In this document: positions 1,026 to 10,188 of the stretch, in pieces
Position numbering within the stretch: position 1 is the first letter of the stretch
Layout of the letters: each line of letters opens with the position of its first letter
Source: Candidatus Electronema halotolerans
Lineage (GTDB): Bacteria > Desulfobacterota > Desulfobulbia > Desulfobulbales > Desulfobulbaceae
Length of the DNA stretch: 32,000 nt
Direction of reading: 5' to 3'
NCBI GenBank assembly: GCA_942493095.1
Contig: OW818675.1
Span: 2,310,001 to 2,342,000 of the forward strand
Translations under genes and position numbers: made by a program
Notes under the pieces: model-generated
The model's input: the letters and a program-made list of their open reading frames with translations, nothing else
What the model was told of the DNA's origin: nothing
The model's database searches: none

Positions 1026-3449
1026 ATGAACCGGAACCGAATCGCCCTCAGCCTCTTTCTCACCGCTTTGACCACCCTGATGGCCGAACTGGCCTTGGTG
1101 CGGATTTTCGATGTGATCTGGTATGCCAACAAAGCCTACATGATCATCACGATGGTCATGTTCTGCTTCGGACTGGCCGGGGTGCAGCAGTCCCTCTGGC
1201 CCGTGCGGAAGGAGAAGCGGCTGAGGACTAAACTTGCAGGACTGGCCTTTTTTTTCGGCCTCTTCCTGCTCGTGCTGCTGCCTGCGGTCAACAGCCTGCC
1301 GCTCAATTTAGCCAACATTCAAGCCAGTTCCGGCAAGGACATTGCCGCCTTTGCCGCTCTGTATCTGCTTTTAGCCACGCCATTTTTTCTCTCCGGCCTG
1401 CTCTTCACCATTATTTTCTCGGCCTATTCTGAGGATATTCAGCGGCTCTACTTCTGGGACTTGGCCGGAGCCGCTGTCGGCTGCTTGGTGCTGATTCCTG
1501 TCCTGCCGTACATTGGCCCGGCAGGCGCGCTCTTTCTCGGCAGCGGTCTCTGCTGGATCACCGCCGGTCTGCTGGCTGAAGGCAGATTCTGGCAAAGGCT
1601 GCTGCCGCTGCTCGGCATTGCCGTTGCCGCAGTCCCGATGATCAAATCCTTCGCCGCTCCTGCCTATTCCCCGGACCGCTACTTTGAATTCCAGCATCAT
1701 GTCTCCAAGCGGGGCGTGCGGGAAAGCTATGCCAAGGAAACTGTGGAAATGAGCCAGTGGGATCCGATCAGCAAAATTGATGTGATCAATATCGGCAGGG
1801 CCAAGCACATTGCCTATGACGGCGGCACCCAGTCCAGCTTCATCTATCCCTTTGACGGCGACTTTGCCAAGCTGCGGGCCGCCCTGCCCAAGGCGACCAC
1901 AGCCAATTTCGGCGGCCAGAATGTCTATCTCAGCCACTGGCTGAAGCGGGATAGCAACGCTGAAGTGCTGATTATCGGCGCGGCTGGCGGTCAGGAAACC
2001 AAAGCGGCCCTGACCTTTGGCGCGAAACATGTTGATGCGGTGGAACTGGTCGGCTTTGTCGTCAAAGTCGGCAAGGAGCTGTACAAGGACTACAACGGCG
2101 GCATCTTCAATGATCCCCGCGTGACCGTCTTTGCCGATGAGGGCCGCAGCTTTCTCCGGGCTTCGGACAAGAAATACGACATCATCCAGATGTACAGCAA
2201 CCACACCTCCAGCAGCATTGCCGCAGGCAGCGGGGCCATGTCAACCGCCTATCTCCAGACCGCTGAGGCGTACATCGAATATTTTCAGCATCTGAAACCG
2301 GACGGCATCCTCCAGATCAACCACCATATTTATCCGCGCATGGTGACCACAGCAGCCAAGGCGTGGAAGGAGATGGGCCGCACCGATTTCCGCCGTCATG
2401 TCATCGTCTTTCAGGCCAAGAGCGGGGTGAGCGACCACCTGCCCACCCTGCTTGTCCGCATGACTCCGTGGACAAAGGAGGAAGTCGCCCTGCTGGAGCA
2501 CTGGTTCTGGGGCCACACCAAAATGGTGGAAAATCCCTATAACAAAGAAGCCTCAATGCTCAGTGACGAGTTCTATTCCGGGGAGCTGTCCAAGGCAACC
2601 ACAGACTTTGTCCCCTTCCGGGTGCTGGCGGCCACAGACAACCGGCCCTATTTCAACTTCCTGCGCAAAGAATGGGCGCGCTACAACCGCGCTTACCCTG
2701 AAAAATACATGGACTATTCCACTGCCGCCTGGTTGAGCATGCAGTATGGCAGAGATCGAGCTATCCCCAGCGACATCATGCACTTAGTCGTCGTTTCCGC
2801 AGCCTCGCTGCTCTTCGCGCTGGTCTTCATCCTAATCCCGCTGCTCTTCTCCAAGGCCGGACGGGCGCGCTGGCCGGGCAAGCTGGCCTCATTAGGCTAT
2901 TTTTCCTGCCTTGGCGGCGGCTTCATCATTGTCGAGCTGGTCTTCATTCAAATTTTTATGAAACTGATCGGCTTTCCCCTCCACACCTACTCGACAGTGG
3001 TCTTTGCCATGCTGACCGCTGCCGCGTTGGGCAGCCTCTGTTCAGGAAAGGCGGACATCAGTCCGCAGCGGCTCTGGCTGCTGCCCTTTGTCGGCACCAT
3101 GCTTGCCGTGCTGCTGTTCATCGCTGTGTATCCGTCCTATTTCAGCCACTTTCTCGCCTTCTCCATCTGGCTGCGGATGGCGGCGGCAGCAGCGCTCATC
3201 CTGCCTGCGGGCTTTTTCATGGGCATGTGCTTTCCGCTCGGCATTCTCGCGGTGAGCAGGCAGCCGGAGGGCGCGGTGGCTTGGGCCTGGGGCATGAACG
3301 GCCTCTTCACGGTCATCGGCGGCATTGCCAGCGTGCTGCTCTCCATCTATCTCGGCTTCAATTTCACCCTCTTCTGCGCTGTGCTGATCTATGCCCTGGC
3401 TCTGGCATTGTTCATGCGGATGCGGCAGGCCTTGGCAGCGGCGCACTGA
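1026..3449 (+). CDS. polytopic membrane protein with a central spermidine-synthase-like (class I SAM-dependent transferase fold) domain
   Basis: ORF 933-3449. I prefer the ATG at 1026 (MNRNRIALSLFLTALTTL...) because 933 is a TTG and the hydrophobic N-terminus starts at 1026. There are many hydrophobic helices at both ends. The central VLIIGAAGGQETKAAL..AVELVGFVV..DPRVTVFADEGRSFL..KYDIIQM resembles SpeE-type nucleotide-binding motifs. Confidence 0.7.
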   Translation: MNRNRIALSLFLTALTTLMAELALVRIFDVIWYANKAYMIITMVMFCFGLAGVQQSLWPVRKEKRLRTKLAGLAFFFGLFLLVLLPAVNSLPLNLANIQASSGKDIAAFAALYLLLATPFFLSGLLFTIIFSAYSEDIQRLYFWDLAGAAVGCLVLIPVLPYIGPAGALFLGSGLCWITAGLLAEGRFWQRLLPLLGIAVAAVPMIKSFAAPAYSPDRYFEFQHHVSKRGVRESYAKETVEMSQWDPISKIDVINIGRAKHIAYDGGTQSSFIYPFDGDFAKLRAALPKATTANFGGQNVYLSHWLKRDSNAEVLIIGAAGGQETKAALTFGAKHVDAVELVGFVVKVGKELYKDYNGGIFNDPRVTVFADEGRSFLRASDKKYDIIQMYSNHTSSSIAAGSGAMSTAYLQTAEAYIEYFQHLKPDGILQINHHIYPRMVTTAAKAWKEMGRTDFRRHVIVFQAKSGVSDHLPTLLVRMTPWTKEEVALLEHWFWGHTKMVENPYNKEASMLSDEFYSGELSKATTDFVPFRVLAATDNRPYFNFLRKEWARYNRAYPEKYMDYSTAAWLSMQYGRDRAIPSDIMHLVVVSAASLLFALVFILIPLLFSKAGRARWPGKLASLGYFSCLGGGFIIVELVFIQIFMKLIGFPLHTYSTVVFAMLTAAALGSLCSGKADISPQRLWLLPFVGTMLAVLLFIAVYPSYFSHFLAFSIWLRMAAAAALILPAGFFMGMCFPLGILAVSRQPEGAVAWAWGMNGLFTVIGGIASVLLSIYLGFNFTLFCAVLIYALALALFMRMRQALAAAH

Positions 3450-3450
3450 C

Positions 3451-5319
3451 ATGCCGCGTTTTCTCAGCCTGCTGCGGCGGCACACAGGCCTGCTGATCCT
3501 GCTGCTTGCTGGTGCCGCAGTTTATCAGCATTTTTTTCTCAGCCGGGCATACATCGAATTTGACTACACGACTGACCACGACACTGCCATTCAGATGCTC
3601 TGGGCCGGAGAGGGCGAGCAGTTTTCCCGCAGCTGCATGGCGACCGCGCCGCTGCCGAAAAACTCCATGCGCACTGGTTTCTTTCTGGGCAGTCTCAGCA
3701 CCATGCGCTCTTTCCGCTTTGATCCGATGGGCAAAGAAAGCGGGACGGTTGTTTTCCGCCGGATCACCATTACCCAGCCGGGCTGGAAGCCCCTGATCTT
3801 TGCTGCGCAAGCTGATTTCGCCCGCTTCCGCCCTGGCAAAAATGTTTCTGAGGCCTCCTTTGCTGAGGGCTGGGGCTGGGTGGTGCGTTCCGACAGCGGC
3901 GATCCTGATTTTTATGTGGATCATTTTGATCCGCCGCCGCGTGATTTTGTCAGCTTGGCCAAAGAACTGAGCCGCTTTCTCCTGCTCGCGCTCCTTCTGC
4001 ACCTGCTGCTGCAAGGATTCGCGCCGCTGACCAAGGACTTCGGCTATGTGCCCCTGCTGCTTTTGGGGGTGACGCTGCTGACAGCGGTGCTGGCAGTGAC
4101 GACCAATTCAGGCAGCCATCCTGATGAACTGGTGCATGAGGCGGCTGCGTCTTATTATGAGCAGCACTGGCTGATGCCTGCGGCGGAATCGCCGGAGATT
4201 GCCGCCACCTACAGCGGCTACGGTGTTTCCCGGCTCAATTCGCGGGAGATCGCTTATTTCCTGATTGGCAAGTTTTCCCGGCTGGTTGAGATATTCCGGC
4301 TGCCCTCCTTTCAGCGGCAACGGCTCTTCAATGTGGCCCTGCTGGCCTGCCTTGTCCTGCTGACGGTCAATTCCACAGCCGCCCGGCTCCTGCTCCTGCC
4401 GTTTCTCATGACCCCGCAGGGCTGGTATTTGTTCGGCTATTGCAACTCTGATGCCTTTGCCCTCTTCCTCACCCTGCTGGCCTGCCAGCAGCTTGCTGAA
4501 CCGGAATCGCTGTTCAACCGCCTGCTGGCAGGTCGGACAACGGGCTGGCTCCCTTTCATCCAGCTGGGCCTGCTGGCCGGGCTGCTCCTGCTGATTAAAA
4601 AGAATTTTTATATCGTCATCCTCTTTGCCGCCTTCTGCCTCCTGCTTGAATTTGTTTGTCGGCAAAGAACATTCTCCTGGCCTACGCTGCGCCGCATCGC
4701 CGCTCTTGTTGGAATCGGCACGGCCATATTCGGCCTCCGCACCGGCTTGGATATATCTGTCAATGGCTGGAACAAGGCGGCAACAATTCAGCAATTGCGG
4801 GAGGAGCGGGCCGAGCGGGCCTACAAGCCCAGCACTGAGCTGGCCAAACAGCATCCGCATCTCAATCTGAAGGGACGGGGGGTGCGCCTGCAAGAACTGC
4901 TCGGCGACAAGTATCGCTGGGGCGGACATATCATCCGCAGTTTCTACGGGGTCTATGGCCAGATGAGCGTGGCGGCCAGCAAAAGCTATTTCACGCTGAT
5001 GATCCGCTGCGGCTGGCTTTTTCTTGCTACAGTCTATCTGACTGTCCTGCTGCGGGGCGGCTGGACTGAACGGCTGCTCCTGCTCAATCTGACCTGCTGC
5101 GGCCTTGTGCTGATCAGCGGCGGGATATGGGCATCGTGGACCAAAGATTTTCAGCCGCAGGGCCGCTACATGCTGCCCATGCTGCCCATGCTCGGCCTGC
5201 TGCTGACAAAAACAGAGCCGCTCTTCCCGCCGCTGCTGCTGCGCGCCTTCTTCACCCTGATGTTCCTGCTCTCACTGGGCAGCTTCCTCTTTATCGCCTT
5301 GCCCTCGCCGCTGCTGTAA
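3451..5319 (+). CDS. large polytopic membrane protein, possibly a GT-C-fold glycosyltransferase (function uncertain)
   Basis: ORF 3391-5319. The ATG at 3451 lies 1 nt after the upstream TGA (3447-3449) and opens with a TM helix (MPRFLSLLRRHTGLLILLLAG). A soluble segment of about 170 aa follows, then at least 10 hydrophobic segments. The HPDELVH acidic motif in an early loop weakly resembles GT-C first-loop motifs. Confidence 0.6.
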   Translation: MPRFLSLLRRHTGLLILLLAGAAVYQHFFLSRAYIEFDYTTDHDTAIQMLWAGEGEQFSRSCMATAPLPKNSMRTGFFLGSLSTMRSFRFDPMGKESGTVVFRRITITQPGWKPLIFAAQADFARFRPGKNVSEASFAEGWGWVVRSDSGDPDFYVDHFDPPPRDFVSLAKELSRFLLLALLLHLLLQGFAPLTKDFGYVPLLLLGVTLLTAVLAVTTNSGSHPDELVHEAAASYYEQHWLMPAAESPEIAATYSGYGVSRLNSREIAYFLIGKFSRLVEIFRLPSFQRQRLFNVALLACLVLLTVNSTAARLLLLPFLMTPQGWYLFGYCNSDAFALFLTLLACQQLAEPESLFNRLLAGRTTGWLPFIQLGLLAGLLLLIKKNFYIVILFAAFCLLLEFVCRQRTFSWPTLRRIAALVGIGTAIFGLRTGLDISVNGWNKAATIQQLREERAERAYKPSTELAKQHPHLNLKGRGVRLQELLGDKYRWGGHIIRSFYGVYGQMSVAASKSYFTLMIRCGWLFLATVYLTVLLRGGWTERLLLLNLTCCGLVLISGGIWASWTKDFQPQGRYMLPMLPMLGLLLTKTEPLFPPLLLRAFFTLMFLLSLGSFLFIALPSPLL

Positions 5320-5332
5320 GTATCAAGCGGTG

Positions 5333-7066
5333 CTACGTATCCGGCTTGGCGTTGTTGGCCATCAACAGCTGCTCGGCCAAATCAAGACGGCTTTGTAAAT
5401 GCGGCACCTGCTTGCAGAGAGGCAGAAGGATGCTGTAGGCCTCCTGCGCATAGGCCACAGACTTTGCCTTCTCTGGAACAAGTTTCAGATAGAACATACT
5501 GAAGTTGATCAGTGTTTCTGTCATATACGGGAGAAATGCTTTTGGCTGTGCCTTGGCTAGGCCGCGTCTGATCTTCAGGGATTCTTCAAATTCTTCAACC
5601 GCCGTTATATAGCTCTTCGTCTCAGCATGTAACGCCGCAAAGCTGTTCAATGTTGTGGCCACATCCGGGAGAAATGCTTCTGGATTCGACTCAGCCAAGC
5701 TGCGGTATGTCGTCAAAGCCTCTTTGTATTCTCCAGCAGCTTGGTCATATTTTCTTGTTGCAAAATTCAGGTTCGCCATATTGTGCAGCGTCTGTGCGAC
5801 ATAAGGGAGAAATGCTGCTGGGTAGGCCTCAGCAAGCCTGCGTCTAATCTTTAAGGATTTCTGGTATAATTTCAAACCAAGGATATAGTTATTTCTACTG
5901 GAATGAAAGTTCGCCAAACTATTCAATATGGTCGCAAGATATGGAAGAAAGACTTCTGGCTTAGATTTGGCAAGATCTTGATATATCGACAGTGCTTCTT
6001 TACATTCTTCCAGAGCTTGAACATGTTCTTTGTTTTCAAAATGCAGGTTCGCGATATTGTGTAATGTTTGCGCAACACCAGGAAGAAATGCTTCTTGATT
6101 GACCTTGGCAAGGCTACGTCCGATCTTCAAGGCTGCTTGGTATGCTTTCAGAGCTGGGCCGAAGTCATTTTGATGAAAATGTAGGTTGCCAAGATTGTTC
6201 AGCGTCGTCGCCAAATATGGACGAAAGGCTTCCGGGTTGGATTTGGCAAGGAACTGGTAGATGTTTAAAGCCTCTTCATATTCTTTCAAAGCCGAGCCAT
6301 ATTTGGCTGTTTCCTTATGCAGCACTCCAAGATTGTTCAAGGTTATAGCAATATCTGCGGCAATAGCTTCCGGGTCGCCCTCGGTGATATCGCGATATTT
6401 CTTCAGAGCCTCTTGCCATAGCGGTTCGGCTTTTCTGAAGGCACTATGGTTATGGAGAAAAAGAGCATATGCAACCAGTATCCCTGCTGTTCGAGCCGTA
6501 GCAAGGGCCTGCTCAAAATAGCTCTCTGTCCGCTGGAATCTGTCTTCACCCTCTTCCACCGGAGTAATCTGGGAAAGCTTGGCCTTGAGCAGGAACTCGT
6601 TCGCCTTGTCCGCCAAGTCCTTGCGCACCGCAGCCAGCCTGTCCTCTGCCGCGTGTTCCGCTGCTTTGAGTTGCTCCACCTCGGCACTGATCTCCTCGGC
6701 CTTGAGCACGGCATCCGCTTCCCGAAACTCGCCTCGATCAAAATGCGCCTTGGCCTGCCGCAGCCGTTCCGTGTTGATCGGAATGCGGGTGAACAACTCA
6801 TGCAAACGGAAGACATCTGCCTTAAAGTCTTCCAACTGCTTATGGAGAGCAGCAAGTTTCTCTCCTTTCTTCAGCCGCCTTGATATGTTGTCTGTCGGAA
6901 TCTCCCGCAGGTCTTCTTCCGTTTCGGCAATATCTGCCATGAGCCGCTGATAATCAACTGAACCATAGAGATGATTGTGGATGACCTTATCCCTGCCGAT
7001 ATTATCGCCGCCGTCTCTGTTCGTCTGGTGCAGCTCAGTCGTGCTGTGCTCGTGCCGGTCAAACAT
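5333..7066 (-). CDS. coiled-coil plus tetratricopeptide-repeat (TPR_12/KLC-like) protein
   Basis: 577-aa ORF. About 7 tandem units of roughly 42 aa follow the pattern EAFLPYLATTLNNLGNLH....A...Y.EAL.I.R.LA..NP. The N-terminal 200 aa are charged and helical (LKAEEISAEVEQLKAAEHAAEDRLAAVRKDLADKANE). The extreme N-terminus carries HQTNRDGGDNIGRDKV. Confidence 0.85.
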   Translation of the reverse strand: MFDRHEHSTTELHQTNRDGGDNIGRDKVIHNHLYGSVDYQRLMADIAETEEDLREIPTDNISRRLKKGEKLAALHKQLEDFKADVFRLHELFTRIPINTERLRQAKAHFDRGEFREADAVLKAEEISAEVEQLKAAEHAAEDRLAAVRKDLADKANEFLLKAKLSQITPVEEGEDRFQRTESYFEQALATARTAGILVAYALFLHNHSAFRKAEPLWQEALKKYRDITEGDPEAIAADIAITLNNLGVLHKETAKYGSALKEYEEALNIYQFLAKSNPEAFRPYLATTLNNLGNLHFHQNDFGPALKAYQAALKIGRSLAKVNQEAFLPGVAQTLHNIANLHFENKEHVQALEECKEALSIYQDLAKSKPEVFLPYLATILNSLANFHSSRNNYILGLKLYQKSLKIRRRLAEAYPAAFLPYVAQTLHNMANLNFATRKYDQAAGEYKEALTTYRSLAESNPEAFLPDVATTLNSFAALHAETKSYITAVEEFEESLKIRRGLAKAQPKAFLPYMTETLINFSMFYLKLVPEKAKSVAYAQEAYSILLPLCKQVPHLQSRLDLAEQLLMANNAKPDT

Positions 7067-7068
7067 GG

Positions 7069-7263
7069 CTATTCCCTGCTGATTTTATCCCTGCCTACGT
7101 TGTCGCCTCCGCCGCTGTTGGTCTGCTGCACAGAATACGTGCCAGTCTTCCCGGCCTGACCCTTGTTCTTCTTCGGCCAAAGCCAGCCGCAGACTATGGT
7201 CAGCACAAAAACACCGATGCCGCTGAAAACCCATTCCTTGTTCTTCATGATCCACGCAAGCAT
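7069..7263 (-). CDS. small single-pass membrane protein with a C-terminal QQTNSGGGDNVGRDKI motif
   Basis: 64-aa ORF with one hydrophobic helix (WVFSGIGVFVLTIVCGWLW) followed by KKNK. GAGGGGA sits 8 nt upstream of the ATG at 7263. The stop is only 2 nt before the ATG of the TPR gene. The C-terminal motif is repeated at the start of the TPR protein. Confidence 0.55.
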   Translation of the reverse strand: MLAWIMKNKEWVFSGIGVFVLTIVCGWLWPKKNKGQAGKTGTYSVQQTNSGGGDNVGRDKISRE

Positions 7264-7388
7264 GATGCTTCCCCTCTGTTCCGCTTGCCCGCAACCTGCG
7301 GGAATGCTTTGCTTCCACCTGCGTCAACTTACCTCAGCAGGCCGCTGTAGTAAACAGCAATCAGCCTCTCCAGCCGGAGACGCAGAAA

Positions 7389-7549
7389 GAGACACTACGG
7401 TGTCTCCCCAAGAGTCACCATAGTGACTCCCTCGGAGTCAGCAGAGTATCTCCCACCGAGTCACTATAGTGTCTCCACCAGAGTCAGCGTAGTGACTCCG
7501 AGGGAGTTACCGTAGTGTCTCTGCAAGAGTCAGCAGAGTGTCTCCGGCA
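7389..7549. repeat. tandem array of seven 23-bp units, each holding an 18-nt 7-4-7 inverted repeat (consensus GAGTCAC-NNNN-GTGWCTC) plus a 5-nt spacer
   Basis: Unit starts fall at 7389, 7412, 7435, 7458, 7481, 7504 and 7527, an exact 23-bp period. The units are gagacacTACGgtgtctc, gagtcacCATAgtgactc, gagtcagCAGAgtatctc, gagtcacTATAgtgtctc, gagtcagCGTAgtgactc, gagttacCGTAgtgtctc and gagtcagCAGAgtgtctc. Arms are conserved; loops and spacers vary. Confidence 0.9.
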
Positions 7550-7590
7550 GAGGGAGCTTTCTGGCTGTGAAGAGTAAAGCGGAGGAAGAA

Positions 7591-7623
7591 CAAAAAGATA
7601 AGGGACAGTCCGAAGACCGCCCC
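7591..7623 (-). terminator. rho-independent terminator downstream of gyrA
   Basis: The minus strand reads GGGGCGGTC-TTCG-GACTGTCCC followed by TTATCTTTTTG. This is a 9-bp stem (two G-U wobbles) with a UUCG loop and a U-rich tail, about 46 nt after the gyrA stop. Confidence 0.5.
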
Positions 7624-7668
7624 TCTATGTGGTGCTGCTGCTGAAATGACGCGCTGTGCTCCTGCTGA

Positions 7669-10188
7669 TCAAGTCTCGCTGTTATCTGCCTCGACGCTCT
7701 CCTCTTCTATTCCCTCCTCCTCAGAAGAACGGGCCAAGATGGACATATCGACCACCTTTTCGTCCTCACCGAGATTGATCATGCGCACGCCCTGCGTGTT
7801 GCGGCCAATGACCCGCATGGAATCCATCGGCATACGGATGACCTTGGCCGAGTCAGCAATCAGCATCACTTGGTCGCTGTCCTCCACCTGCAATGCGCCG
7901 ACCACCAGACCGTTGCGCTCGCTGGTCTTGATGGTGCAGACCCCCTTGCCGCCCCGGCTTTGCAGGCGGTACTCGGACACTGCGGTCCGCTTGCCGTAGC
8001 CGTTTTCCGTCACCGTGAGGATGGAGGACTCGCACTCGCTCTTCTTCAGCACCACCGCCCCGACCACCTCATCGTCCTCTGCCAAGGTGATGCCCTTGAC
8101 CCCGGCGGCAAGACGGCCCATGACCCGGATGTTGTCCTCATGAAAATGAATGGACATGCCATTGCGGGTGACTAAAAAGACCTCATCCTCGCCAGAGGTG
8201 ATGTCGGCGCAGAGTATCTCGTCGTCCTCGCGGATGGTCAGGCCGAACTTGCCCTTGCGCAAGGGTTTCTTGTACTCGCGGATGCTGCTCTTCTTAACCA
8301 CGCCCTTCTTGGTCACTGTGAGCACGGAGAGCGCCTCGTCCGCATTGGCCAAGTCTGTCACCGGCAGGACAGCCGCCACCTTCTCGTCCTCGCCCAGCTC
8401 CAGCAGATTGACAATGGCCCGGCCCCGCGCTGTGCGTCCGCCTTCAGGCAGCTCATAGACCTTGCGCCAATAGACCCGGCCCTGATTGGTGAAGAAGAGG
8501 AAGGTGTCCAAAGTTGAGGCGGTGTAGAGGCCGGAGACAAAATCATCCTTGCTGTCCGCCATGCCGGTCACGCCCTTGCCGCCCCGGCGCTGGGCGCGGT
8601 ACAGACTGAGGGCATTGCGCTTGATGTAGCCGTTGTGCGAGACCGTGACCACCATCTCCTCAACCGCGATCATGTCTTCCGGCAGGATTTCATCTGGCGT
8701 GTCAATGATCTCGGTGCGTCGTTCATCGCCGTACTGGCTGCGGATGTCCTTGAACTCGTCGCGGATGATCTGCATGACCAAGGACTCGTCAGCCAGCACC
8801 TGCCGCAGCCAAGTAATCCGCTCCTTGATTTCCGTGTATTCCTGGACAATCTTGTCGCGCTCCAAACCGGTGAGCCGCTGGAGGCGCATGTCCAAAATAA
8901 CTTGCGCTTGCAGGTCAGAGAGGGCGAAACGCTCGGTCAGTCCGGCCTTGGCATCTGACGGCCCGGCAGCGGCTCTCACCAGCTCCACCACCGCATCCAG
9001 ATTCTCCAAGGCAATCTTCAGACCTTCGAGAAGATGAGCGCGCTCCTCAGCTTTGTTCAACTCAAAGGCGGTGCGGCGATAGACCACGGTGCGGCGGTGT
9101 TCAAGGAAATGCTCCAGGAGCTGCTTGAGGTTGAGCACCTCCGGCCTGCTGTTGACAATGCAGAGCATGATCACGCCAAAGCTCTTTTGCAGCGGCGTGA
9201 GGGTGTAGAGCTGGTTGATGGTCACGTCCGGGTTCTCGTCCCGCTTCAGGTCCATGACTATGCGCAGGCCGTCCCGGTCCGACTCGTCCCTGACCTCAGC
9301 AATGGAGGTGATCCGCTTGTCCTTCATCAGCAGGGCGATCTTCTGCACCAAGGCGGCCTTGTTCTGCTGAAAAGGAATTTCTGTCACAACAATGGCTGCG
9401 CCGTCGCCTTTTTTGCGCTGCTCGATATGCAGGCGGGCGCGCATGACAATGCTGCCCCGGCCAGTGCTGTAGGCATCGGCAATGCCTGCCCTGCCGCAGA
9501 TGAAGCCGCCAGTCGGGAAGTCCGGGCCAGTGATGTGCTCCATGAGCTGGGGCAGGCCGATCTCAGGCTCGTCAATCAGGGCCAGCAACCCATCAATCAG
9601 CTCGCTCAGGTTGTGCGGCGGAATCTTGGTCGCCATGCCCACGGCAATGCCTTCCGAGCCGTTAAGGAGCAGGTTGGGAATCCGGGCGGGCAGGACAGTC
9701 GGCTCCTGCTGCGAGCTGTCATAGTTGGGGATGAAATCCACCGTGTCCTTGTCAATGTCCGCGACCAGCTCCTGATCCAGCCTGCTCATCCGGGCCTCGG
9801 TGTAGCGCATGGCCGCAGGCGGGTCGCCGTCCATAGAGCCGAAATTGCCTTGGCCATCGACCAGCGGATAGCGCAGGGAAAAATCTTGGGCCATGCGCAC
9901 CAGAGTGTCATAAACTGCGGTGTCGCCGTGCGGATGGTACTTGCCGATCACGTCGCCGACAATGCGGGCCGACTTGACATAAGGCCGGTTGTGGAAGGTG
10001 CCCAGCTCGCGCATGGCGTAGAGGCAGCGCCGATGCACCGGCTTGAGGCCGTCGCGCACGTCCGGCAGGGCGCGGCCGACAATCACGGACATGGCATAGT
10101 CCAAGTAGGACTTGCGCAGCTCCTTTTCTATGTCAACGGTCTGAATCGCTTCGGGCAGGAGTTCGTCCTGCGCTGTCTCTATGGTCAT
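7669..10188 (-). CDS. gyrA: DNA gyrase subunit A
   Basis: 839-aa ORF with hallmark N-terminal motifs: [51 protein letters not shown] and the active-site region [11 protein letters not shown]-terminal beta-pinwheel repeats and an acidic tail are present. Confidence 0.98.

Follow-up and report, generated by a model that had tools for sequence, protein, structure and literature searches.

Seven exactly phased 23-bp palindromic units were analysed in a 32,000-nt stretch of the Candidatus Electronema halotolerans genome (GCA_942493095.1, contig OW818675.1, positions 2,310,001–2,342,000; hereafter the window). The array that they form, at 7389–7549 of the window, belongs to an apparently undescribed low-copy family of intergenic repeats that is almost restricted to cable bacteria. 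The family and its distribution were established, together with an invariant unit skeleton, the absence of covariation, rigid phasing, homology of whole arrays and synteny. The conservation pattern is the signature expected of duplex-DNA sites for a dimeric protein, and points to sites set for cooperative binding; we infer from it the binding itself and, likewise, the identity of the protein and the function of the arrays. The family is new, yet of a known general kind, that of bacterial interspersed repeats or protein-binding arrays.

Cable bacteria form multicellular filaments that conduct electricity. They are uncultured, and the organisation of their genomes is poorly known. No description of the arrays was found in the literature on cable-bacteria repeats, palindromes and small RNAs (sRNAs); the genome paper that discusses repeats covered only those >250 bp in length at >99% identity.

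Structure of the array and its element

The units start at 7389, 7412, 7435, 7458, 7481, 7504 and 7527. Each consists, on the minus strand, of an inverted pair of 7-bp half-sites, GAGWYAS and STRWCTC, separated by 4 nt and followed by a 5-nt spacer; as a duplex, the 18-mer unit is GAGACACTATAGTGTCTC. The 4-nt centres of units 1–7 are TACG, CATA, CAGA, TATA, CGTA, CGTA and CAGA. Coordinates and centres were reproduced exactly as given in an earlier reading made from the letters of the window (the sequence-only reading). Its 7-4-7 layout applied to every unit, but perfect 7-bp palindromes were found in units 1 and 2 only, and the remaining five have 1–3 of 7 non-pairing positions (2–3 on the plus strand, 1–2 on the minus strand). 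The array has a polarity, its spacers being G-rich on the minus strand (the sense strand of gyrA). Units of the window array are ~71% identical to one another.

Tandem Repeats Finder reported a period of 23 with 6.7 copies. With ≤1 mismatch allowed, the 18-mer pattern gave 13 strand-hits in the window, every one inside 7389–7544, compared with a mean of 0.04 matches in shuffled sequence, and no shuffle reached 13. The array is the sole occurrence within the 32 kb. A coding repeat, dismissed in the sequence-only reading as well, was rejected: the 23-nt period runs through all frames, TGA and TAG occur inside units, and no open reading frame (ORF) spans the array.

The sequence-only reading had placed the array, as a whole feature, between the gyrA terminator and an operon of a small transmembrane (TM) protein and a tetratricopeptide repeat (TPR) protein. 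The position stood, but the array is only the central part of a larger minus-strand element of ~200 bp (7590..7383). On that strand, the leader (7590..7545) is followed by the units (7544..7389), TTTCTG (7388..7383) and a tail hairpin (7382..7365). The 46-nt leader reads TTCTTCCTCCGCTTTACTCTTCACAGCCAGAAAGCTCCCTCTGCCG, and its last ~25–40 nt are common to non-orthologous copies, with the consensus CAGCCNG-NAAR-CACCCTCTGCCG obtained by flank comparison. The locus L016 (loci are given by L numbers) is homologous to window 7569–7383 at 82% identity. The terminal unit (7383..7406, minus strand) is the perfect palindrome GAGACACCGTAGTGTCTC, followed by TTTCTG; many copies have TTTTTG instead, which makes the terminal unit resemble an intrinsic terminator. 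Terminal units with a like ending were also seen in L011, L016, L020, L021, L024, L037, L039, L040 and L041. The tail hairpin (CGTCTCC-GGCT-GGAGAGG, minus strand) looks like a decayed unit and is also present 3' of the arrays in L021, L037 and L041. A sigma-54 site in the tail was checked by eye and rejected, its spacing being one base too long.

Conservation, covariation and phasing

Conservation was determined on sets of 128–168 non-redundant units, and covariation on 150 units. Eight skeleton positions, G1 A2 G3 A6 and T13 C16 T17 C18 (GAG..A / T..CTC), were 97–100% conserved (150 units). At the other paired stem positions (4/15, 5/14 and 7/12) the bases varied freely, as they did in centres and spacers. 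The skeleton pairs were never swapped for another Watson–Crick pair. Paired cells of the 7-bp hairpin made up 83.6%, and column shuffling gave 83.4 ± 0.7%; the observed and shuffled covariation scores were 0.091 and 0.092. At positions 4/15, AU was counted 40 times, UA 36 times and a non-pair 71 times, and about half of the units had at least two mismatches in the 7-bp stem. Nor was covariation seen when arm 2 was instead paired, across the spacer, with arm 1 of the following unit. Since the invariant pairs never flip, what is constrained is the identity of the bases in two inverted half-sites that are independent of each other, rather than the formation of a helix.

The unit-to-unit distance was exactly 23 bp in 157/166 cases (32 arrays), with fixed loop and spacer lengths; spacings of 24 bp were found in 6/166, each just before the last unit. 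Arm centres are 11 bp apart inside the unit and 12 bp apart across the spacer, and the half-sites, ~14 across the window array, alternate in orientation at about one per helical turn. A G at the last spacer position places GGAG ahead of 83% of the units. The absence of covariation, combined with the rigid spacing, favours duplex-DNA sites for a dimeric protein over RNA or single-stranded DNA hairpins. A dimeric protein or nucleation site, one of the roles listed in the sequence-only reading, is thereby its best-fitting proposal, and its argument for selection on the palindrome rather than slippage agrees with units that are ~70% alike around eight invariant positions (150–168 units, >12 genomes).

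The same counts bear on an RNA-level element, which the sequence-only reading had raised as a multi-hairpin leader or sRNA. Such an element would be either a 3' untranslated hairpin stack with an intrinsic terminator at its end, by which upstream transcripts would be stabilised or terminated, as by some repetitive extragenic palindromic (REP) sequences, or a repeat sRNA that serves as a CsrB-type protein sponge or as a ToxI-like type III antitoxin ahead of the small membrane protein. In its favour, the gyrA-sense last unit is a perfect hairpin with a T-run in ~12 arrays, many arrays lie 20–120 nt past a co-directional gene, and repeats, terminator and a small toxic-looking protein follow one another as in type III toxin–antitoxin (TA) loci. 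Both strands also folded far better than shuffles (z −7.0 and −9.5), as a folding check proposed in the sequence-only reading confirmed, but this is a trivial result of palindromes. The GGAG ahead of most units could be read in the same sense, but the GGA motifs would fall at stem bases and not in loops. Beyond the unpaired stems and the skeleton pairs that never flip, ~60% of arrays lack a T-run, and the strong terminator of gyrA already stands upstream of the array.

The arrays keep no constant orientation to transcription (groups E and H differ from the window). Relative to co-directional neighbours, the arrays of the window, L021 and L024 run one way and those at the gatB and CitMHS loci the other. 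The occurrence of both orientations argues against a strand-specific RNA role and fits a role at the DNA level. No promoter-like site was seen, and Rfam gave no match at the gathering threshold in the 32 kb and only chance-level miRNA/snoRNA matches (E≥1) at E≤10 in 7250–7700. A CsrA sponge was rejected on the stem-base position of GGA, the two orientations and the Rfam result, and a type III TA system on the lack of a ToxN-like gene; AbiQ- and CptN-like toxins are likewise absent, and neither downstream gene is a TenpN-family endoribonuclease. An RNA-level element is considered improbable, and the leader or sRNA proposal is not supported. Behind an upstream gene, the terminal hairpin with its T-run may still provide back-up termination or insulation, as a secondary and possibly co-opted property.

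Seven GANTC sites were confirmed in the array, i.e. in 7 of its 14 arms. GANTC methylation, put forward for checking in the sequence-only reading and here considered as a CcrM-type cluster, gained no support, as GANTC did not emerge as a conserved feature of the units: position 4/15 is W, GANTC follows from W = T in GAGWC, about half of the arms carry it, and the skeleton does not require it. In the window outside 7380–7600, GANTC (70 sites vs ~108 expected) and GAGWC (63 vs 90 ± 9) were under-represented under a second-order Markov model, which may reflect restriction avoidance or codon usage. A restriction-site reading of the array was rejected, the modest scarcity of GAGWC/GANTC leaving the phased array unexplained.

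Distribution across genomes

A search of 185,579 species, with one genome apiece, was made with a degenerate pattern of three units in 23-bp phase. It gave 30 loci, ~24 of which are in Ca. Electronema, Ca. Electrothrix or allied Desulfobulbaceae metagenome-assembled genomes (MAGs). Arrays were recorded in Ca. Electronema (aureum GS, nielsenii F5, KV, PJ, TJ and JC), Ca. Electrothrix (gigas and YB6) and two Desulfobulbaceae MAGs, at ~1–7 loci per genome by the stringent three-unit pattern, a number that draft assemblies may undercount. In ~190 kb of flanking sequence, a single further array was found. A metagenome scan returned 11 matching stretches, of which 8 are further family arrays and 3 unrelated repeats. 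Plasmid and phage collections (BLAST with the 209-bp element) and viral contigs (pattern scan) gave no match.

The G-rich-spacer strand polarity is common to 23/23 cable-bacteria arrays, which also share the unit and the leader end. Many of them end in a perfectly palindromic unit with TTTTTG behind it. Outside cable bacteria, the species scan matched tandem repeats of 23 bp that are unrelated to the family (in Treponema, Bacteroides, Prevotellaceae and Hormoscilla), in a number close to chance for the loose pattern. Among the matches, L017, L019/L045, L032, L034, L015/L035 and L038 are unrelated organisms' own highly homogeneous 23-bp repeats with palindromic arms, and an AT-rich metagenome contig is another such source. 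The arms of L038 (12 copies of GAGTCAC-ACAG-CTGACTC-AGAGA) are strikingly like those of the family.

Solo units are rare (2 in ~300 kb). One, a perfect unit with a leader, follows the VapB-PIN cassette directly 3' of gyrA in the MAG S01.Bin068 (L011 1470–1560, minus strand). The same locus holds a 29-nt duplicate of the junction between gyrA end and antitoxin start (2150–2180, minus strand; GAGYTTGCATGAATTGCGCCATMGAAGGC), and solo unit and duplicate together look like the scar of recombination inside an array. The second perfect solo unit, GAGACAGCCTGCTGTCTC (L020 7649–7666), stands 79 nt ahead of the start of a TIR/beta-helix gene, the 3' end of which abuts a full array, so that the gene is bracketed by repeats of the family.

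Homology and turnover of arrays

Units of the same index were 0.82–0.87 identical across loci and genomes (window, L011, L016 and L020), compared with 0.70–0.73 for units of different index and 0.69–0.73 for units within one array. Between arrays, 0–1 of 56 skeleton sites differed, against 23–43% of spacer and 21–50% of W positions. By these comparisons the arrays are homologous as whole seven-unit elements that are old, have not been internally homogenised and carry a skeleton under purifying selection. The unit-by-unit homology holds between non-orthologous loci too.

A neutral variable-number tandem repeat (VNTR), generated by recent replication slippage at this single locus and already disfavoured in the sequence-only reading, is a rival explanation. 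Unit number does differ among relatives: 4–8 units were counted at orthologous loci of the TIR-NosD/gatB group and 5–6 in the after-MmeI group, and L037, orthologous to the window on the small-protein side, retains units 3–7 only. The array of L043 is homogeneous and looks recently amplified, and the variant arrays of L003 and L047 (5 vs 6 units) show recent amplification of one- or two-unit blocks. Against this stand the low mutual identity of the window units, their closer match to same-index units elsewhere than to their own neighbours, and eight positions invariant across genera. The index-wise homology and the constraint on the skeleton rule out recent local slippage, and a neutral VNTR is therefore highly improbable. 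Variable unit number, named in the sequence-only reading as a mark of neutrality, was found, but at conserved positions.

The variant arrays lie 3' of gyrA (L003 3590–3720 and L047 5849–5990), with units RAGACAC-CCTG-GTCKCTY in a 46-bp higher-order repeat. They end in AAGACACCAGGGTGTCTTTTTTT, and ~55 nt further on is a good promoter (TTGACA-17-TATCCT) for an HU-HIG gene. Other genomes have unit flavours of their own: the two arrays of Electrothrix YB6 (L022 3886–4018 and L031 1417–1531) consist of GAGACAC-GCCC-GTTACTC, with arms non-complementary at positions 4–5, and the KV arrays L007 and L018 have CTTG/CTAG/CAAG centres in common. This suggests co-evolution with a trans factor, or per-genome turnover of one variant.

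Loss of an array was observed in L001. Its gyrA region is 91.5% identical to that of the window and lacks precisely 7590..7391, the tail hairpin being kept. The 2-kb small-TM/TPR segment is missing as well, in a separate gap filled by 137 bp, and a conserved 30-bp piece with the tail hairpin stands between the two gaps (L001 2772–2938 vs window 5317–7590 for the whole region). In the window, the strong intrinsic terminator of gyrA (7600..7625, minus strand) consists of an 11-bp stem followed by ATCTTTTTG; the end of its T-run, TCTTTTTG, matches the end of the element, TCTTTCTG, at 7/8 positions. As the L001 junction falls in this direct repeat and the tail is kept, L001 represents a deletion and not an unoccupied target, and the two repeat copies are the likely deletion endpoints.

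These observations bear on a selfish or neutral repeat, i.e. a ~200-bp non-autonomous element of REP/BIME (bacterial interspersed mosaic element), BOX or MITE (miniature inverted-repeat transposable element) type, copied or gene-converted between intergenic sites and serving no host function. Its palindromic units would be recognised by a transposase or recombinase, and its unit number would drift by slippage. This explanation accounts for several dispersed loci per genome, for the drift of 4–8 units at orthologous loci and of 5 vs 6 in L003/L047, for the newly amplified look of L043 and for whole-element homology between non-orthologous loci. It also fits the near-identical arrays with three different 5' flanks in genome PJ (L027, L028 and L030; two at contig ends), the preference for 3' ends and convergent intergenic regions, and the difference in array presence among close relatives.

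However, copy number is in single digits and not in the hundreds, neither terminal inverted repeats nor target-site duplications were seen, and no transposase family recurs among the 118 ORFs within 3.5 kb of arrays. The blank result in the plasmid, phage and viral collections, the lack of within-array homogenisation, the tail left behind in L001 and positions conserved across genera, such as the TIR-NosD/gatB group, also count against it. A selfish repeat is unlikely, though it is the main rival reading. Genome-wide scatter, which the sequence-only reading associated with a generic REP/BIME-type element, was borne out in that the arrays are dispersed at several loci, but not in copy number, which is low and unlike that of REPs, nor in position, which is conserved.

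Proposed role as duplex-DNA sites

We tentatively favour, from sequence comparison, the reading that a dimeric, sequence-specific protein binds the arrays cooperatively on duplex DNA at the boundaries of variable conflict-gene cassettes. The window array would then be one copy of a lineage-restricted intergenic element of ~150–250 bp, made up of a leader, 4–8 phased units and a terminal palindrome, often with a T-run, and recognised as duplex DNA through the half-sites GAGWYAS. A dimer of the helix-turn-helix (HTH) or ribbon-helix-helix (RHH) type could be loaded along the array in a cooperative manner, building up a nucleoprotein filament, as on plasmid centromere, iteron and operator arrays. 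In the genomes, the arrays stand at junctions of variable conflict cassettes (TA, TIR/beta-helix, TPR, caspase and MmeI-type restriction genes), most prominently in a hypervariable island 3' of gyrA. The complex would most likely insulate or silence neighbouring genes, or serve as a recombination or boundary site; the window array, between the gyrA terminator and the small-TM/TPR promoter region, could act on that promoter from upstream.

Several results weigh against this reading. No gene for a DNA-binding protein accompanies the arrays with any consistency, and the HU-HIG/DUF4469 paralogues near several of them belong mostly to one syntenic island and are non-independent. The rarity of solo units does not indicate a transcription factor with a wider regulon. 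The loss of the array in L001 without obvious consequence and the drift between 4 and 8 units would fit a dispensable selfish element equally, and the sequence preference of a mobilising enzyme would keep the same skeleton as a host DNA-binding protein.

In a bolder form, the arrays would be the cis sites of a new chromosomal system specific to cable bacteria, in which a dedicated dimer polymerises on 4–8 palindromes and marks, insulates or recombines the boundaries of conflict cassettes. This is quite unlikely. It would resemble integrons in its cassette-boundary and recombination logic, with different parts, or alternatively be a centromere-like organiser.

The motif GAG..A-N6-T..CTC every 23 bp provides a handle for finding the partner protein, and the skeleton can mark the variable islands where TA, TIR, TPR and caspase-type genes, as typical of multicellular bacteria, are found. 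Should the arrays be recombination or boundary sites, they would explain the shuffling of conflict cassettes; if they are only selfish repeats, they are still useful as an assembly-break and strain-typing feature.

Comparison with known repeat systems

Plasmid arrays are built in a comparable way: the F sopC site has 12 × 43 bp, each with a 7-bp inverted repeat, and R1 parC, pSK41 parC and the omega heptad arrays are further examples. Like plasmid centromeres, iterons and operators, the present arrays are tandem, exactly phased (pseudo)palindromic dimer sites with independently varying half-sites, as the 157/166 spacings of 23 bp and the independent half-sites show, and cooperative binding would be a further likeness. 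The plasmid arrays lie beside par, rep or regulator genes, whereas those described here are chromosomal and multi-locus, and the 118 neighbouring ORFs include no recurrent ParA, CbiA, ParB, RHH or Rep family.

With REP/BIME sequences the arrays share short, imperfect extragenic palindromes that are dispersed, clustered and lineage-specific and often stand after stops or between convergent genes. REPs number hundreds per genome, have a 5' GTAG, form clusters of alternating orientation and variable spacing, and are recognised as folded single strands by RAYT. The arrays, in contrast, occupy ~1–7 loci per genome in a rigid head-to-tail 23-bp phase, with stems that lack covariation and no GTAG rule; the GTAG/CTAC foot is absent from the skeleton GAG..A/T..CTC, and GTAG occurs only within some loops, e.g. 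CGTA-G. Y1_Tnp, the RAYT domain, was not among the families recurring in the 118 ORFs within 3.5 kb of arrays.

BOX elements of Streptococcus pneumoniae and MITE-like elements resemble the arrays in their modular A-(B)n-C layout, variable internal unit number, intergenic position and whole-element spread. BOX, however, has a boxB of 45 nt, >100 elements per genome and a supposed action as RNA structures, whereas the units here are 23-bp palindromic half-site pairs with a sequence-specific skeleton. Unlike in a MITE, leader and tail are not inverted copies of each other, and the 'empty' site of L001 keeps the tail hairpin.

Clustered regularly interspaced short palindromic repeats (CRISPR) have repeats of ~23–50 nt, unique spacers of ~26–72 nt, and cas genes or a leader; the present spacers are 5 nt long, and no cas domains occur among the neighbours. 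ToxI-type units of type III TA systems are 34–45 nt long, strand-specific and processed by a ToxN-family RNase encoded downstream. The resemblance lies in tandem non-coding repeats followed by a terminator-like hairpin and a small, potentially toxic gene; the differences are the 23-nt unit, the 64-aa membrane and TPR proteins downstream, and the occurrence of both orientations.

Integron attC sites have the architecture R''-L''...L'-R' with a GTTRRRY core and are read by IntI as a folded single strand, not as a phased tandem repeat. Like the arrays, they are imperfect palindromes of species-specific sequence at the 3' ends of promoterless cassettes (often TA) and mark cassette boundaries in hypervariable regions, but the arrays are phased and tandem, and neither a GTTRRRY core in units or flanks nor IntI was found. 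A single tyrosine recombinase was seen; it is encoded in L020 and is an ordinary XerC/D-like protein of 304 aa.

Genomic context of the arrays

All arrays are intergenic, many of them between convergent genes or 5–120 nt past a stop codon. The recurrent neighbours are gyrA (5 loci), TPR proteins, TIR and beta-helix proteins (two paralogous loci), MNT-HepT and VapB-PIN TA pairs, an MmeI-type restriction enzyme, NADAR, HetE-N, caspase, phospholipase C and HU-HIG/DUF4469 proteins. Array positions that recur are 3' of gyrA, after MmeI, and between TIR-NosD and gatB, the last also in Electrothrix gigas.

In Electronema-like genomes a variable island lies 3' of gyrA, with the array as its constant landmark; gyrA is 0.1–1.6 kb upstream of the array in the window, L003–5, L011, L021, L028, L042 and L047. 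In the window, the order is gyrA, array and small-TM/TPR pair. In L011, gyrA is followed by VapB-PIN, the leader with one unit, MNT-HepT, the array and the small-TM/TPR pair. L021 and L041 have a TM protein and a caspase after the array, and L028 a small gene between gyrA and the array, then a convergent unknown gene. In L042 and L039, gyrA and VapB-PIN precede the array and a convergent NADAR gene follows it, and in L003–5 and L047 the variant array stands between gyrA and HU-HIG. In Electrothrix scaldis and YB6, gpsA comes directly after gyrA and no array is present there.

Homologous small-TM/TPR pairs lie 126–150 bp downstream of an array in two genera (window, L011, L037 and Electrothrix YB6 L022). 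The array could thus be an operator or upstream activating array specific to this operon, a special case of the protein-binding model that the sequence-only reading had anticipated when it assigned the array to the operon's promoter. The recurring distance agrees with that assignment, as do the L022 array, which occupies a divergent promoter region with an HU-HIG/DUF4469 gene on one side and the pair on the other, and the arrays of L003/L047 and L021, which stand 50–75 bp upstream of good −35/−10 promoters for the gene that follows. Most members of the family, however, adjoin unrelated genes and follow stop codons; the window, L011 and L037 are one orthologous locus, which leaves L022 as independent support, and both operon and array are dispensable in L001. 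An operon-specific operator is therefore very doubtful.

Paralogues with a weak Pfam match to HU-HIG and an Ig-like DUF4469 (323–387 aa) were found close to arrays in several genomes: L003 3937–4908 (and L003/4), L022 2664–3824, L025 3–788 and 4576–5649, L028 1–363, and L037 2671–3732, with fragments in L008, L010 and L039. The HU-HIG clade has been described as a rapidly diversifying Bacteroidetes expansion (PMC5499826). The PJ contigs L025 (3–98) and L028 (1–96) overlap in one HU-HIG gene (100% identity over 32 aa), which places two arrays and two HU-HIG paralogues within ~12 kb in the PJ gyrA island. HU-HIG/DUF4469 is an attractive candidate for the binding protein, but its associations come mostly from the one gyrA island, and it was kept as a lead only.

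Neighbouring genes in the window

All genes neighbouring the window array are on the minus strand. The upstream anchor of the array-bearing variable region is the conserved gyrA (7669..10188; Pfam), the product of which is 94% identical to a metagenomic protein, 87–89% to Ca. Electronema and ~78% to Ca. Electrothrix. These identities place the source of the window in the Desulfobulbaceae, as a freshwater organism of cable-bacterium type. Between the element and the ATG of the small protein lies a non-coding stretch (7264..7364, minus strand) that is conserved in a three-way alignment and probably holds promoter and leader of the small-TM/TPR operon itself. No consensus site was found when 7000–7900 was scanned for sigma-70 promoters; TTTACT-17-TAAGTT in 7264..7364 is a weak candidate.

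The 64-aa membrane protein (7263..7069, minus strand; ATG at 7263, 126 bp from the array) has no Pfam match, and its downstream partner is a 577-aa TPR protein (7066..5333, minus strand). The C-terminus of the membrane protein, QQTNSGGGDNVGRDKIS, resembles the N-terminus of the adjoining TPR protein, HQTNRDGGDNIGRDKVI. In amyloid-signalling (BASS) pairs of filamentous bacteria, the C-terminal motif of an effector matches the N-terminal motif of the neighbouring receptor (bioRxiv 10.1101/2020.01.06.895854). The small-TM/TPR pair has the same motif layout, but only TPR repeats, and no NB-ARC, were detected in the TPR receptor, and the effector is something other than a Bell domain. The small-TM and TPR proteins of L037 are fused into a single ORF.

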